Shown: piece after piece, positions 4,352-32,267 of the stretch
Position numbering within the stretch: the first letter of the stretch is position 1
Layout of the letters: each line of letters opens with the position of its first letter
Origin: a virus
Taxonomy: Duplodnaviria; Heunggongvirae; Uroviricota; Caudoviricetes
Virus record (IMG/VR): IMGVR_UViG_2541047798_000009
Length of the DNA: 47,650 nucleotides
Strand: one strand, 5' to 3'
Made by a program: the position numbers and the translations under genes
The notes under the pieces: generated by a model
What the model saw: the letters and a program-made list of their open reading frames with translations, nothing else
Told to the model about the DNA's origin: nothing
Databases searched by the model: none

Positions 4352-7300
4352 TCAGCTAATCGTGATGCCTGCAGTGGCTTTCTTCATCACAACAACCAGC
4401 AAATCGCTGATACTTGCTGTGGGATACCAGCCATTTACCCACCATGCTGATACAGAAAACTCCAGCGTCATGTCGCCGCGACCAGCAGGCATATCAATAA
4501 CACCACTGTAAACCAGCGTATTATCCATCGCGGTACGGTTATAAATTTCAGCACCGTTTTTCTTCACTATCAGGCGGCATGACGAATAAGTATCGCTGTT
4601 CTCCCGCTCATGTCTGGCACCGCTGAAAGCCACCGCCGGAATAACAATCTGCCGGTTAAACGGCTGATCGTCATAAACCCTGACGGTAATGGTTCCTGAT
4701 GGCCAACGCTTCGGTGCACGGGAGTCACGAGGGAAAGCCTTACCCACTGTTTTAACGAGATCGCCTTCAATCTGGTTTGCAGACAGTTTCCCTCTGATGA
4801 CACAGTTCTCGTTAATGGTGACATTATTGAGCGTGCCGGTATTCGCCGTGATGGCTCCACTGATATCCGCATTGCGGGCTGCCAGCCTGCCATCCGGCGT
4901 CAGGGAAAACGTAGGAGGATTGCCGGATGACGTGATGCTCACCGCAAACAGTCGCTTCAGGAACACGTCGTTCATGAACAGCTGATTCCCCTGCGCCACA
5001 AACAGCGGCGTGGTGTTGCCGTTCTCCGGGGTAATCATCGCAATGCGATCGGCCTGCAGCAGAATGTTACTCAGGGTCTGACCATCAACATCCTCAATCC
5101 CCGCGCCAATCCCGGCCACATAGGGAATACCGTTTTTTGTTTTCTGCACCTTCAGCATATACATGGCATTCAGCTCATTGCGCGTGTCTGACTGAACCCG
5201 CTGGATTTGCTGTATGGTCACGGCCTGGTCACCCAGCTTTTTATCCGTGGTCGAGGTAATTTCACTCCCTTTTTTATCCACGTACTGGCGGACCTGTGCT
5301 ATCTGTCGGGCGTTTTCTGACTGCCCCTGGCTGACAGTCTGTGAGATTTCACTGCTCACCCGGTCCACTTTCTGGCTCACCTGCGCGATGGCCAGTGTCT
5401 GATCCTCATTCTTTTTCGCAACCAGCTGCGTGAGGCTGTTTTCCGCCTTCCCGATTTTCCGGGTCACTTCTGCGATATCCGTGTCCATCCGCTGACGGAT
5501 ATCTTCTTCCAGTTGCGTGACCTCCGTACGCAGCGCTGAAGCATCAATGCGCTCTTTCAGTGCCTGGCCCAGAAGCGTCTCATCTATCAGCCCCCGGAAA
5601 ATTTCCAGATACCCTTCACCATCATTGCTGGGCTGCCCGCTGGCTTCCACAAAAGCAGATTTTCCCACCAGGTTGACGCTTCGCACGTAAAACCAGAAAT
5701 CCGTCCCCGGCTTAATCCGGCTCCCCTGGACAGTCCACTGACTGCCGGTCCCCAGATAACGGGCAGATTTTTCCACCTGTGCTGTGTTCGTGATGCGTTT
5801 TTCTGAGAACCAGAATTCAAACTGTACCGTCGGGTCATACACCGCAAGACGCGGGACCGCCGTTATCTGAAAATACCCCGGCGTCAGCTCAATGGTGGCG
5901 GGTTTTGCAGGTGCGTTAATCCGGAAGGTGGTGGTGGCAGGTTCACCCTGCTGGCCATAGCTGTTTATCGCCCGCACCGTCAGGGTGTATTCCCCGAGCG
6001 GCAGGCCGCTGAAACGGTGCTCCGTGTCTGCGGTGATGGCAGTGGTCACCAGTCTGGCATCCGTTCCCTTACCACTGGTCAGGCGCAGACTGAAGCGCAC
6101 GCCCTTCACCACCCGCGGCGTGTCCCATTTCGCCTGCGCCAGATACTGGCCATCAGCTGCGCTCACCTCCACCGTCAGGTGCTGCACTGCCGGTGGGATA
6201 ACGCTGTTCAGGGTGCCTGACTGCGGCTCAAAGCGGGCACCGTTATCCACGATGGCTTCTTTTTCCGGTACGTGCTGCACCGCCGTGATGGCAAAGGTGC
6301 CGTCCGTGTTTTCCCGGATGGAGACACAGCGGAACAGGCGACGGCGCAGTGACGGCAGGGAGAGTCCCCACACCCCGTATGTCTCCACACCATCAGGCAG
6401 GGTACTGACCTGTATCCGGTCCGGCGCGGGGTGTGCGGTGATGTCCACACTCACCGGCTTACCGCTGCCGTTAATCAGGTTCACCGCTGATGTACCTGTC
6501 TCCGGCAGGGTAACCTCACGGTCCAGCGTCAGGGTGCGGGTGGCAGCATCAATGGACAGGACACGTCCGCCGGTCAGGGTCCCGGCATAGTCATTATCAC
6601 AGATTTCAATAATGTCACCGGGTGTGTGACGCAGCCCCTGTGACCCGAGCGTGAAATCCACCGTCTGCGTTTCCAGCAGTTCGGTCTTTATCACCCACAG
6701 CCCGGCACGGTGGGCCTGACCGCGGCTGGTACAGCCGAACGCGTCCATCTTCAGCAGGTTGCGTCCGTAGCGCAGTATGGCTTCCGGGTCTTCCACCAGT
6801 TCCGTGGAGGTCTGCCAGCCGTTCTGCGGGTCGGTGTAATTCACCTCCACCGCCGTGTGCCGGTCCTTCAGGGCACTGAAGCTGTAGCGGAAACCCACGC
6901 CGTTATCATCCACCACCACATCGCTGCTGGTGTACGGCCACACCACATCCGACGGGCGGTCCTGAACAAACGTCAGCGTCTGACCGTTCCATACCGGCAT
7001 ACAGCGCATCGCAGAGCAGAAATCACTGAGAACGTCCCACGCCTTACGCTGTTGTGCCAGGTACGCATTAAAGGTCATCCGCGGCTCGGTCCCCCCGAAA
7101 CCATCCGGGACCGTCTGGTCGCAGTACTGCCCGATGGCATACAGCGCCCACTTGTCCACATCCGCCACCCCCAGACGTTTTCCCATGCCGTAGCGCGGGT
7201 GAGTCAGCATGTCCCACAGGCACCAGGCCGGGTTGTTGCTGTATGCCGGTTTCAGACTGCCGTCCCAGATACCACTGTACGTGCGTTTTTCCGGGTCATA

Positions 7301-8044
7301 GTTTGACGGCACCTGGATGATGCGACCGCGGATATGGTAGTTCACCGTCATCTGCTGGCCGCCGAACTGCTCCGCATCCACCTGCAGCCCCACAATGGCC
7401 GTGTTCGGGTAGCACTGTTTCACATCGATGATTTCGGTGTATGACGACCACAGCGTCTTATTCTGCAGCTGGTCCGTGGTGTTGTCCGCCGTCTCCCTGA
7501 CCATCCGGATGTTAAAGGGCCGGGGAGGCAGATTATCCAGAATCACCGAGGCCAGGAACTGCGAGGTGGTCTTGCCGTTAATGGTGACATCCTTTTCCGT
7601 CACCCAGCGACCATTACGCTGTAACTGAATCAGAATCCGGACAGAGGAAGGATTACGGTCGCCCTTTGACGTGGTCTGCACCAGTGACTGCACCCCGAAG
7701 GTAACCCGCAGGCGGTCAATGTTCGCGGACGTAATGGTGCGCGTCACCGGTTTTGCCTTCGTCACTTCCACGCCCAGTCCGGTTTCAGCTCCGGAGGACT
7801 CAAAGCCTTCCGGTGGTGTCTGCTCCTGCTCCCCGGCGCGCCAGACCGCGGTCACACCGTGTATCACGGGATTACCGTCCGTGTCCGTCAGCGGGGTTTT
7901 GTTCACCAGGATACTCTGCAGTCCCTTCACCGGACCTTCTATCGGTCCCTCACCAATCGCATCAATCACACTCATCATCTGCGTGGATTTGAGATTATCC
8001 TTCGCCTCGCGAGGCGTGTGTGCCTTACCGCCACCTTTTCCCAT
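4352..8044 (-). CDS. J: Tail tip / host specificity protein J (1230 aa)
   Basis: Starts [39 protein letters not shown]..., near-identical in pattern to the lambda J N-terminus; size and position after I. Confidence 0.93.
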
Positions 8045-8150
8045 ACAGCCTTCCCCTGAATAAATTAACCGCCACTTGCCATTCCGTACAGAAGTCGGAT
8101 ATCCTTCGCCCGAAAAGCATGAAACACATTTCTGCCATGCTAAAGAGAAA

Positions 8151-8183
8151 CCCCGGTATCAGCAGATACCGGGGTTTTCTTTC
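8151..8183. terminator. Strong hairpin (10-bp stem CCCCGGTATC/GATACCGGGG) with flanking T-rich runs in the I-J intergenic insert
   Basis: Perfect 10-bp stem with 4-nt loop followed by TTTTCTTTC on plus strand and TTTCTCTTT on minus strand; possibly bidirectional. Confidence 0.6.
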
Positions 8184-8249
8184 ATGCCCACCGATAATCC
8201 TGTTGGTTAAAACCGGTAATGGCATAAAAATTCTGAATATCTTCACATT

Positions 8250-8277
8250 TTCACAAACTGACTGTGGCGCGTATAAT
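8250..8277 (+). promoter_or_regulatory. Sigma70-like promoter (TTCACA -35, 16-bp spacer, TATAAT -10) in the I-J intergenic region
   Basis: Read directly: ttcaca-N16-tataat, oriented antisense to the tail operon. Confidence 0.55.
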
Positions 8278-8283
8278 TTCTCT

Positions 8284-8380
8284 GCGTTAATTTTTTTGTC
8301 GTGATATAAGAATAATTCCTTACACTTAATCTTCGTAACTCTCCCGCAGTTCCTGTCCGCGATCACTGCGGGATTTTTTT
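8284..8380 (+). ncRNA. Candidate ~95-nt small RNA (promoter-to-terminator unit with no ORF)
   Basis: Predicted start about 7 nt after the TATAAT; ends in CCCGCAGT...ACTGCGGG hairpin plus 7 T (8343-8380); no ATG-initiated ORF inside. Confidence 0.4.
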
Positions 8381-8387
8381 ATTCTTT

Positions 8388-9068
8388 TTACCCCTGCCGC
8401 CCGATAACCACGACCTTTCCGCCCCCGCCTTCATCACGGGTGCTGATGTCCTGGGATATACGGCGGGAGCCAACCAGCATTTCCCCGTAAGGCACCGGCA
8501 TCGGGTTCCCCTGGGCAATCATGTTATCCAGCGAGGAAAAGTACGTGTTCTGTCTGCCGTTATCCGTTGCGCGGTAATCCGGTGTTTTTGCCTTCGGGGC
8601 CAGCATCTGGGCCACACCGCCCAGTATCATGCTGGCACCCAGTGAAAACAGCATCGTGGTGGCAGAAAAACCGCCGGCACTCAGGGCTGTACCCCATAAC
8701 GCCATCGAGGCACCGGCAGTGAAGAAAGAGCCCACGATGGCTGCCGCCCCCAGCACAATCTGCAGTCCACCCTTTCCGGCCCCGGCCAGTCGCGGCACAA
8801 TGTGGATGACCGTTCCCTCACCCAGCTGTTCGTGAAGACGGGCATACACCGCCTCCGGTGCCGTGTCATCACCGGCAATACGTATCTGGTACCAGCCTTC
8901 GTTCATCTGACGGCGAAAGCCCGGCATCTGCATCGACAGGGCGCGAATGGCTTCCGCTGCCGTGTTCACATACAGGCTGAGGCGGCGGCCAAATCGTTGT
9001 AAATCCCCGTAAAGGCGGATGCGTGCCAGTGGCGGTGACGCCAGACTGAATGCGTTCGTCGTTGCCAT
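8388..9068 (-). CDS. I: Tail assembly protein I (226 aa)
   Basis: MATTNAFSLASPPLARIRLYGDLQRFGRRL... matches the lambda I pattern including the Gly/Ala-rich hydrophobic middle. Confidence 0.9.
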   Translation of the reverse strand: MATTNAFSLASPPLARIRLYGDLQRFGRRLSLYVNTAAEAIRALSMQMPGFRRQMNEGWYQIRIAGDDTAPEAVYARLHEQLGEGTVIHIVPRLAGAGKGGLQIVLGAAAIVGSFFTAGASMALWGTALSAGGFSATTMLFSLGASMILGGVAQMLAPKAKTPDYRATDNGRQNTYFSSLDNMIAQGNPMPVPYGEMLVGSRRISQDISTRDEGGGGKVVVIGRQG

Positions 9069-24889: not shown

Positions 24890-25231
24890 TCAGGGTGCAG
24901 AAGGACTAAAGATAAACGTTTTCTTCACGCCTTTACACGGCCTGTCCTTCTCAAATCGCCATTTTGCCATCGCCTTTACAACCTGCTCATCAAACAAATG
25001 GTGCGGCTCTGAACGGATAAACTCAATTCGGGTGACAGTACCATCAGCACCAATATCAAACTTCACATCAACCCGTCCCTTTATATAATTTGCCGCTGCA
25101 TAGGCCGGATATTGTGGTAATGCCTTAACCAACTGTCGGGGCATATCTGTTTTATGTTGCGTACAGCCCATAACCAGAGAAGACAACAAAATAATTAACG
25201 GAAGATTTCTTTTCATTTTCATTCCCGGCAC
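24890..25231 (-). CDS. Lipoprotein with TonB C-terminal-like domain (about 110 aa; likely start at 25216-25222)
   Basis: Lipobox LVMGC after a signal peptide; C-terminal YPAYAAANYIKGRVDVKFDIGADGTVTRIEFIRSEPHHLFDEQVVKAMAKWRF fits the TonB_C pattern. Confidence 0.6.
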   Translation of the reverse strand: MPGMKMKRNLPLIILLSSLVMGCTQHKTDMPRQLVKALPQYPAYAAANYIKGRVDVKFDIGADGTVTRIEFIRSEPHHLFDEQVVKAMAKWRFEKDRPCKGVKKTFIFSPSAP

Positions 25232-30800: not shown

Positions 30801-31398
30801 GAATCCTCCCGGCCGGGATAATATTGTGAGTAAAATAAGGAGCGGGCTGAAGTCCGGAAGTTACAGGACAATGGCAGAAGAGAGACGACAGCCCGCAATT
30901 CGAAAAAGACCGCGCAGTTGCGCAGAGTGATTACTATGGGGTATTATTCGTCAGCTGAAATATTACTTCACGTTTTATTGTTTATTCCTTGCCGCCCGCG
31001 TCTCCCAGCGCGGGCTTTTTTTGTCCATAAGAAAGCCCCTCCGGAGAGGGGCTGGAGAGTGGCGCTATGTGCCATTGCATGATGCCGGGTGCCTCCCGGT
31101 GAGTTCAGCCCGGTGACACTGAACCCGCGTCATTCTCGTTTTGATAATCAGAGATTATACCATCACCAGTCGCCCCTCCGCTCAGGGGGATTCACCATGC
31201 CGTTCTCTTTTAACAAATTCGCCGCTAACAGGACAACATTCCGCTTTCTGAGTTGTGAGGAATTTAACACTTCACACCTGTGTGCATTTTCTACAGGCTG
31301 ATCCCAGCACCACAATACATCGCAGGCAACAGAAGCCAAATGCCCCACCACAGAAAAAACATGCAATTATGATTATTGTTTACTGCAAAGATGTAGAA

Positions 31399-32105: not shown

Positions 32106-32182
32106 TGGACCGCCATCGAGGACTCGAACCCCGCGCAGCCAGCTTCGAAGGCTGGCGCTCTATCCCGATGAGCTAATGGCGG
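32106..32182 (-). tRNA. tRNA-Arg (anticodon UCG by hand folding)
   Basis: Hand-folded cloverleaf: 7-bp acceptor, D-arm GCTC/GAGC, anticodon stem CCAGC/GCTGG with loop CTTCGAA, T-arm CGGGG-TTCGAGT-CCTCG, CCA encoded. Confidence 0.7.
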
Positions 32183-32191
32183 TATGTGATA

Positions 32192-32267
32192 TGGTGGCCC
32201 TTGCTGGATTTGAACCAGCGACCTGGCGATTATGAGTCGCTCGCTCTCACCACTGAGCTAAAGGGCC
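32192..32267 (-). tRNA. tRNA-Ile2 (anticodon CAU, ileX/ileZ-like)
   Basis: Sequence GGCCCTTTAGCTCAGTGGTGAGAGCGAGCGACTCATAATCGCCAGGTCGCTGGTTCAAATCCAGCAAGGGCCACCA is very close to E. coli ileX as recalled; anticodon loop CTCATAA. Confidence 0.8.

Follow-up and report, generated by a model that had tools for sequence, protein, structure and literature searches.

PasB (E2348CN_0006) is a small RNA (sRNA) of enteropathogenic Escherichia coli (EPEC) O127:H6 strain E2348/69 that was found by RIL-seq (sequencing of ligated, interacting RNAs; Pearl Mizrahi et al. 2021, PMC8550237). Its 83-nt locus lies on the minus strand of prophage PP6 (NC_011601.1, 1466343 to 1466261), between E2348C_1436 and E2348C_1437. 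Northern blotting validated PasB, which reaches higher levels when LB (lysogeny broth) cultures stand static overnight and which took part in 37 RIL-seq interactions, ranking 15th by interactions; its log2 fold changes in Δhfq versus wild type are -6.8 and -2.4, as we interpret table S2 of that study (PMC8550237). In enterohemorrhagic E. coli (EHEC) O157:H7 Sakai, EcOnc22 (prophage Sp15), EcOnc23 (Sp14) and EcOnc24 (Sp11) were reported as homologous peaks of Hfq-CRAC (cross-linking to Hfq followed by cDNA analysis; Tree et al. 2014, PMC4104026, Table S2), with a Northern band of ~85 nt that is destabilised in Δhfq (PMC4104026). Here we analyse a 47,650-nt stretch of viral DNA, IMG/VR record IMGVR_UViG_2541047798_000009 (the window, meaning the whole stretch), and find that its positions 8221-8387 (+) are a divergent allele of this pasB and, very probably, EcOnc22-24 prophage sRNA gene, a moron inserted antisense between the tail genes I and J.

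PasB is flanked in NC_011601.1 by the gene for tail assembly protein I (1465674-1466255, +) and by gpJ (from 1466496, +), which places it in the I-J gap and antisense to the tail genes, the layout of the window unit. The homologous part of the window gap is its right 167 bp, 8221-8387 (+). Across the promoter-plus-sRNA region, the window and PasB are 80.5% identical over 169 nt (E = 2e-36), and nhmmer with the 83-nt PasB alone detects the window at E = 1.2e-5. The unit consists of the following elements:

8231-8247, plus strand: dyad TTCTGA-N6-TCACA upstream of the promoter core, a probable regulator site that resembles a CRP site
8250-8277, plus strand: sigma-70 promoter of the sRNA, with -35 TTCACA at 8250-8255, a 16-bp spacer and -10 TATAAT at 8272-8277
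8284-8380, plus strand: predicted PasB-family sRNA of ~83-97 nt, from homology to PasB and the Sakai I-J units, family alignment, ARN statistics and fold
8284-8289, plus strand: sRNA 5' element GCGUUA
8291-8297, plus strand: sRNA U7 run
8308-8316, plus strand: sRNA (ARN)3 stretch AAGAAUAAU
8316-8334, plus strand: putative sRNA seed UUCCUUACACUUAAUCUUC, single-stranded and allele-specific
8343-8380, plus strand: sRNA terminator, stem CCCGCAG 8343-8349 / CTGCGGG 8366-8372, then A and T7 at 8374-8380

Between PasB and the window, the upstream dyad and the -10 are near-identical and the terminator 3' arm with its U7 is identical, whereas the body has diverged. The same elements follow one another in both RNAs: GCGUUA, a U-run, an ARN stretch, a CUCCUU-like seed and AUCUUC. 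Apart from its last bases, the Northern probe used for PasB (AATCCCGCAGTGATCGCGGAGCT) matches the window terminator in reverse complement. The seed reads UUCCUUACACUUAAUC in the window and CUCCUUCACAUUGAUC in PasB, and the block to the left of the unit, described below, is module A in the window but module B in E2348/69. In a first-pass annotation of the window, the unit had been taken for an sRNA gene complete in itself, on the plus strand and antisense to the tail operon, on the model of the prophage sRNAs of pathogenic E. coli. The proposal is supported, and the analogy can be restated as homology to one such RNA, the Northern-validated, Hfq-dependent PasB.

Placed on NC_002695.2, the EcOnc22-24 peaks lie between I and J in gaps of 240 bp each, antisense to the tail genes and at the same offset in each gap. 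The coordinates were published on NC_002695.1, and we estimated the shift. AgvB, located with Rfam at 1.94 Mb, implies ~+140 nt between the Sakai assembly versions, and the STnc100 copy at 2.19 Mb fits the EcOnc04 peak only with a shift roughly that of AgvB. With +140 applied, all three EcOnc22-24 peaks fall within 91-nt PasB-like units. The Sakai units in these gaps share the architecture of the window unit but carry a different allele (GCAUUACUUUUUUGAUGCCUGAAAAAUAACUCCAUAACGUUAAUCUUCAUCG...). We found no paper in the literature that makes the connection between EcOnc22-24 and PasB. More generally, the coordinates of Tree et al. 2014 appear to be ~+140 nt off the current Sakai RefSeq record from 1.94 to 2.9 Mb (L146-L151), and re-users of the EcOnc table should lift them over to that record.

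A 2026 survey of such genes (Zhu, Shabalina and Storz, bioRxiv 10.64898/2026.05.13.724894) used 83-nt genes, a word size of 28 and more than 75% query coverage, and the PasB variants it describes differ by few nucleotides. The longest exact word common to the window and PasB is 25 nt, and a sensitive blastn search with the 83-nt PasB aligns only those 25 nt, at the terminator. Hence, the window allele should be missed by a word of 28 combined with the coverage filter. Our repeat of a survey-like search, a PasB-type megablast, gave matches of 90% identity or more throughout, in 956 of 5426 complete E. coli genomes. In the same 5426 genomes, blastn with window 8221-8387 returned 1848, with 4761 places and up to nine per genome; PasB proper amounts to ~1,000 places, against ~4,760 for any allele. 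The window allele itself is at least 99% identical in 633 genomes and 100% identical in hundreds, and many extraintestinal isolates are among its listed matches.

Family units came from E. coli genomes and, by way of a loose pattern, from 120 IMG/VR stretches. An I homologue adjoins 106 of the 123 IMG/VR pattern matches, on the opposite strand, and 98 of the 123 have both I and J; the others arose by chance, lie at contig ends or are the inner members of tandem pairs. The 48 distinct transcripts run in one order: first GCGUUA and a run of U, next a short piece that varies, then an A-rich stretch and a CUCCUUA-like core, followed by five to seven highly variable nucleotides, a conserved (A/G)AUCUU(C/U), another variable piece, and finally CCCGCAG...CUGCGGG with U6-8. 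Across them the promoter -10, GCGUUA, the U-run, AAUCUUC and the terminator are conserved and the segment between varies. The A-rich stretch is a run of three to seven ARN triplets, found at the same position in 44 of the 48 alleles (mean 3.6, versus 1.4 in shuffles); Tree et al. pointed out the same Hfq distal-face motif for AgvB and AsxR (PMC4104026). The consensus fold pairs the terminator alone, leaving the 5' two-thirds open. Within the seed, the CUCCUU part would be complementary to Shine-Dalgarno-like sequences. Three loci hold tandem pairs of units in a single I-J gap (L010 183-653, a 471-bp gap; L070; L082), each unit with its own dyad, -10 and terminator but with a different seed segment.

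The promoter, TTCACA-16-TATAAT, matches the consensus at 11 of 12 positions, and sites of this quality occur three times on both strands of the whole 47.6-kb window versus 0.66 times in shuffles. It had been called near-consensus in the first-pass annotation, a description that holds for the window copy at 8250-8277 but not for the -35 of other alleles: across 42 distinct promoters the -10 stays in place, with the sequence TATAAT, AATAAT or TATCAT, and the -35 is not conserved. The half-sites of the upstream dyad are invariant or nearly so (at least 95%) in the same 42 promoters while the spacer varies, and we therefore read the dyad as the probable site of a dimeric regulator. Within the window, the dyad pattern alone is not significant (one match versus 0.54 expected). 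It reads TCTGA-N6-TCACA at 8232-8247, to be compared with a CRP site, TGTGA-N6-TCACA centred near -41.5 or -61.5; the dyad centre is ~44.5 bp upstream of the predicted start, a non-canonical position ~3 bp further upstream than a class II CRP site. On this resemblance to the CRP consensus, CRP control of the sRNA promoter would be a lead only. PasB is up where Spot 42 is down across two EPEC conditions (PMC8550237). This opposition is only suggestive, as it fits CRP activation but many other signals too. A second TTCACA-16-TATAAT site matching at 11 of 12 positions, at 25062 (+), lies antisense inside the minus-strand open reading frame (ORF) 24890-25231, in which an internal ATG near 25216 opens MKRNLPLIILLSSLVMGC..., a lipoprotein-type signal; we set this promoter-like site aside as unrelated and probably due to chance.

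The 5' end of the window sRNA is predicted between 8284 and 8298. The fold of 8284-8381 reaches -19.4 kcal/mol (z = -2.3), and the plus-strand terminator claimed earlier for 8343-8380 is there, with both its stem and its T7. No ORF is present inside 8284-8380; the ORF list thus bears out the earlier statement that none lies between promoter and terminator. The sequence has the hallmarks of an ARN-type Hfq sRNA, namely an (ARN)n motif, a U7 tail and a seed predicted to be single-stranded. The CA-rich stretch that had been flagged for target prediction (8318-8331) is precisely where the alleles differ. Within the window, RNAduplex gave no signal for trans targets among 215 translation-initiation regions, its best energy of -26.4 being weaker than the mean best of -30.1 for shuffled sRNAs. 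A search of published full texts for the seed sequences found no paper.

What we observe at this locus is its anatomy, homology, synteny and conservation pattern. We consider it likely that the unit's own promoter is active in the lysogen and expresses a PasB-family sRNA that depends on Hfq and acts in trans, with an allele-specific seed. The late operon is silent in a lysogen, and the sRNA's own sigma-70 promoter (-10 at 8272-8277) would produce an RNA of ~85-97 nt ending at the terminator and its U7 (8343-8380). Hfq would bind the (ARN)3 stretch and the U-tail. UUCCUUACACUUAAUCUUC (8316-8334) would then act in trans by pairing with mRNAs of the host or of prophages, with a CUCCUUA-like core complementary to Shine-Dalgarno-like sequences; because the seeds differ, the target set is expected to differ from that of PasB. 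The left 176 bp of the gap lies outside the sRNA gene and carries the J leader and the bidirectional hairpin, in place of the lambda-type operon-sense hairpin. Expression of the window allele, its 5' end, seed and targets, and the regulator of its promoter are all predictions of this model, and transcription, Hfq dependence and the many RNA partners would carry over from published work on other alleles.

Several points weigh against this reading. The RNA body is only ~70% identical to PasB (62 of 89 aligned columns), so that the function of the window sRNA is one carried over by homology. Transcription and Hfq dependence are published for the E2348/69 and Sakai alleles only (PMC8550237, PMC4104026), and the PasB seed and targets are putative in every strain. 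The EcOnc22-24 peaks very probably belong to the PasB-like units, a placement that depends on the coordinate shift and is consistent at three loci. The family alignment has no covariation support, as the terminator stem barely varies, partly since the search pattern fixed its 3' arm. Rfam contains nothing credible for the gap, in searches of the whole window with the gathering threshold and of the gap alone with E <= 10. Finally, RNA-seq coverage puts the 5' end of EPEC PasB at the equivalent of window 8298, 21 nt past the -10; the start implied by TATAAT is therefore not confirmed, and the RNA may be processed.

The unit is set among tail genes and a left block as follows:

4352-8044, minus strand: gene J (flank), tail tip attachment/host specificity, an ORF with six GpJ/tail-tip Pfam families
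8042-8044: J start codon, with the Shine-Dalgarno sequence GGGGAAGG as the complement of 8049-8056
8045-8220, no strand assigned: left block, "module A", J leader and hairpin, 176 bp, nearly invariant
8142-8183, no strand assigned: bidirectional terminator-like hairpin, A-run 8142-8150, stem 8151-8160 / 8165-8174, T-run 8175-8183
8388-8969, minus strand: gene I (flank), tail assembly, PF06805 Lambda_tail_I (Pfam), with 582-nt homologues

The I-like ORF is open to 9068; we place its probable start at 8969 because homologues are 579-582 nt long and start at a GTG overlapping the K stop. Both tail genes are on the minus strand and the gap between them, 8045-8387, is 343 bp. The first-pass annotation had put the spacing at about 340 bp and enlarged relative to lambda, and this is what we measure: the lambda gap is 60 bp (L145, lambda 15445-15504), and the gaps of Enterobacter, Pantoea and Rahnella relatives are 42-54 bp. 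These short gaps of distant relatives came from a contig scan with protein I, which otherwise gave few useful loci. The unit is thus an insertion relative to related phages that brings its own promoter and terminator, as a moron does. The window's 343-bp gap is 100% identical in ATCC 25922 (NZ_CP009072.1 3960539-3960881), CE10, clone D i2, VR50 and BEN2908. None of the listed E. coli genome records has an annotated feature under the gap; one phage record annotates a hypothetical protein beneath the gap match.

Module A occurs in 1446 genomes and is at least 99% identical in 1442 best-match records. It is joined to a different, E2348/69-type PasB allele in O103 and O157 strains (L006, L007), and the 75-bp module B replaces it next to the window allele in strain NCTC9112 (L002). 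These junctions show module A to recombine independently of the sRNA unit. The idea that the left block derives from a decayed sRNA unit was rejected, the two showing no similarity (local alignment score 16 versus a shuffle mean of 18.8).

The hairpin within module A, previously described as a 10-bp stem with T-runs on both strands at 8151-8183, is present as described. Its arms are CCCCGGTATC (8151-8160) and GATACCGGGG (8165-8174), with six G-C pairs and the loop AGCA, and the flanks AAAGAGAAA (8142-8150) and TTTTCTTTC (8175-8183) supply a T-run on both strands. It folds with z = -5.8 on the plus strand and -5.2 on the minus strand. It is missing from the output of a terminator scan; the probable reason is that its A-run pairs with its T-run, which lengthens the stem. 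Module B has a hairpin with a T-run on the tail-operon strand only and one compensatory C-G to T-A change. The 60-bp gap of lambda holds an operon-sense hairpin and T-run just before the J start codon, and the Enterobacter, Pantoea and Rahnella gaps (L016, L018, L020, L022, L024) hold an operon-sense, GC-rich hairpin and T-run directly before J. Because lambda, distant relatives and module B all carry an operon-sense hairpin before J, our reading is that the window hairpin is a local version of an ancestral feature of the I-J junction that lies outside the sRNA moron. By the established biology of lambda Q, late transcription from PR' is expected to read through it. Candidate roles for the hairpin are attenuating non-antiterminated transcription, as the first-pass annotation had suggested for read-through into J, stabilising upstream mRNA, and shielding the sRNA promoter from plus-strand read-through.

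The I-J junction is a moron hot spot. A sodC moron (Cu/Zn superoxide dismutase) occupies the sRNA strand of the I-J gap at L011 417-606, at L021 after position 136, and in IMG/VR gaps of 848-917 bp; in each, sodC is followed by a PasB-like body and terminator with the promoter replaced. Such a copy behind sodC would be a sodC 3' untranslated region-derived RNA, or silent. At L012 474-578, the IS66-family insertion element ISCro1 removes the sRNA promoter and 5' part. Prophages of Enterobacter wuhouensis and Pseudocitrobacter faecalis (L017 and L019, gaps of 626 and 582 bp) carry a sense-strand ORF starting MKVKKYGLVLFGVLFISGCAPQ..., with a lipoprotein-like signal. Three contigs labelled Streptomyces flavalbus (L013), Parendozoicomonas haliclonae (L015) and Clostridiales metagenome-assembled genome (L021) encode an I protein 91-98% identical to the window's, with PasB-like units also on L013 and L021; most likely, these are E. 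coli prophage contamination of the assemblies.

Could the unit act mainly in cis, its antisense RNA or head-on promoter tuning J or I in lytic growth through RNase III cleavage or transcriptional interference, with trans targets secondary? The geometry invites the idea: the unit is antisense to the tail genes at every informative locus (13 in E. coli and 106 in IMG/VR), its position directly after the I stop is fixed, and by construction ~97 nt are fully complementary to the late transcript. Yet no translation signal is masked by the RNA, whose end falls at the I stop and whose start lies, on the mRNA, ~240 nt upstream of the J ribosome-binding site, and a moron needs the antisense orientation in any case so that its terminator spares the operon. 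The seed also varies among alleles while I and J do not change, which trans targets fit better, and EPEC PasB has its 37 Hfq-mediated partners elsewhere in the genome. We regard a mainly cis role as unlikely. An inert relic, kept in the window prophage by recent spread and making no functional RNA, is less likely still. Complete identity in hundreds of genomes could indeed mean recent spread rather than selection, and other copies have decayed or been disrupted, as the promoter replacement after sodC and the IS66 cut in L012 illustrate. Against this, the window copy retains its 11-of-12 promoter, a complete body and the terminator; functional elements are kept across about a dozen seed alleles while spacers drift; and expression and Hfq binding are on record for two other alleles, in EPEC and EHEC.

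The gap raises two further alternatives, of which one, in the left block, is compatible with a PasB-family sRNA to its right: a second plus-strand sRNA of ~70 nt, running from TTGCCA-18-TATCCT (8076-8105) to the hairpin at 8151-8183. A promoter-like match at 9 of 12 positions ahead of a strong plus-strand terminator, the tandem sRNA units in the same gap of other prophages (L010, L070, L082) and the near-invariance of the block speak for it. The promoter match is weak, though, in a region with three promoter-like sites versus 0.8 expected; neither similarity to the PasB unit nor an Rfam match at threshold was found for the block; and the T-run of module B, on the tail-operon strand only, makes the operon-sense hairpin the shared feature. 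We doubt that this second sRNA exists, about as much as we doubt a mainly cis role. As to a small protein, three ORFs of 113, 94 and 44 amino acids do cross the gap (8025-8366 on the minus strand, 8020-8304 and 8076-8210 on the plus strand), and there is the hypothetical protein of the one phage record. No Pfam family matches them, and PHROG yields a single match, which is insignificant (E = 0.095). They extend across blocks that recombine independently, the O157 copy L007 has a 1-nt deletion that falls within them and would shift their frames, non-multiple-of-3 indels between alleles break frames as well, and the minus-strand ORF enters J out of frame. With frames not conserved and no credible protein match, we reject their coding potential and think a protein product very improbable.

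A trans-acting, PasB-family sRNA accordingly remains our preferred interpretation of 8221-8387. Beyond it lies a broader proposal that we find plausible but put forward tentatively: that the seed-swapping sRNA cassettes of the I-J junction form a family exceeding the published PasB set several-fold, with a conserved chassis, at least 12 seeds and some tandem pairs, in which the window allele has a regulon unlike that of EPEC PasB or EHEC EcOnc22 and is possibly catabolite-controlled via the CRP-like dyad. The chassis consists of the regulator dyad and the -10, followed by GCGUUA, the U-run, the run of ARN triplets, AAUCUUC and the terminator, and the alignment suggests which nucleotides are chassis and which are seed. 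The family itself has a description from 2021 and a probable first sighting from 2014; our additions are a divergent allele that is common, the chassis-and-seed anatomy, the very probable link to EcOnc22-24 and a candidate regulator site. A third of complete E. coli genomes carry some allele, and the published PasB survey should miss the window allele and most others, so estimates of PasB prevalence and its apparent pathovar bias may need revision. A reading of raw sequence had, in this case, recovered a genuine prophage sRNA gene of an experimentally supported family.

In its general design the window unit resembles other prophage sRNAs. The AgvB/AsxR anti-sRNAs and STnc100/PasD are likewise prophage-borne, Hfq-binding RNAs with ARN motifs in a variable 5' part and a conserved terminator, and they too are morons, often in several copies per genome. 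They differ in location and sequence: those RNAs sit at the PR' moron site downstream of Q and are unrelated in sequence, whereas the window unit is in the tail module. AgvB/AsxR act as anti-sRNAs (sponges), which PasB is not known to do. AgvB/AsxR (RF02702, RF02703) were rejected as the identity of the window unit, given the other site, the unrelated sequence and the absence of any hit to either family in the gap, both with the gathering threshold and with E <= 10; in Sakai, the true AgvB is picked up by its model. STnc100 itself has a full-length match elsewhere in the window (RF02076, 158 bits) at 31023-31229 (-), with two tRNA genes just upstream, at 32109-32267 (-). It is a second prophage sRNA locus in the window, and STnc100 has been related to PasD by the 2026 survey (bioRxiv 10.64898/2026.05.13.724894).

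HnrS (EcOnc10-12; Poudyal et al. 2026, PMC13502914) is, like the window family, a multicopy, Hfq-associated sRNA of the prophage late region. It represses hha and pairs with a ribosome-binding site, and offers a model for the action of such an RNA (PMC13502914). HnrS is 66 nt long, lies in Sp9, Sp10 and Sp12 some 5 kb from AgvB and not between I and J, and is largely restricted to EHEC and EPEC. With up to nine copies per genome, as in the window family, it was a candidate for the identity of the unit, which we rejected since EcOnc10-12 are another locus. EcOnc54 of Sp6 was likewise rejected as a further I-J sRNA, as it sits between a regulator gene and an antirepressor gene.

Among the lambdoid phages, examples of morons are bor and lom of lambda. 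Like lambdoid morons generally, the window unit is extra DNA between late genes, with its own promoter and terminator and expressible from a repressed prophage; the concept is that of Juhala et al. 2000, as cited in PMC4104026. The idea of prophage morons that encode Hfq-dependent sRNAs is unchanged by our findings. Compared with the protein morons, the window unit stands apart in its cargo, a non-coding RNA, and in its direction, which points against the operon.

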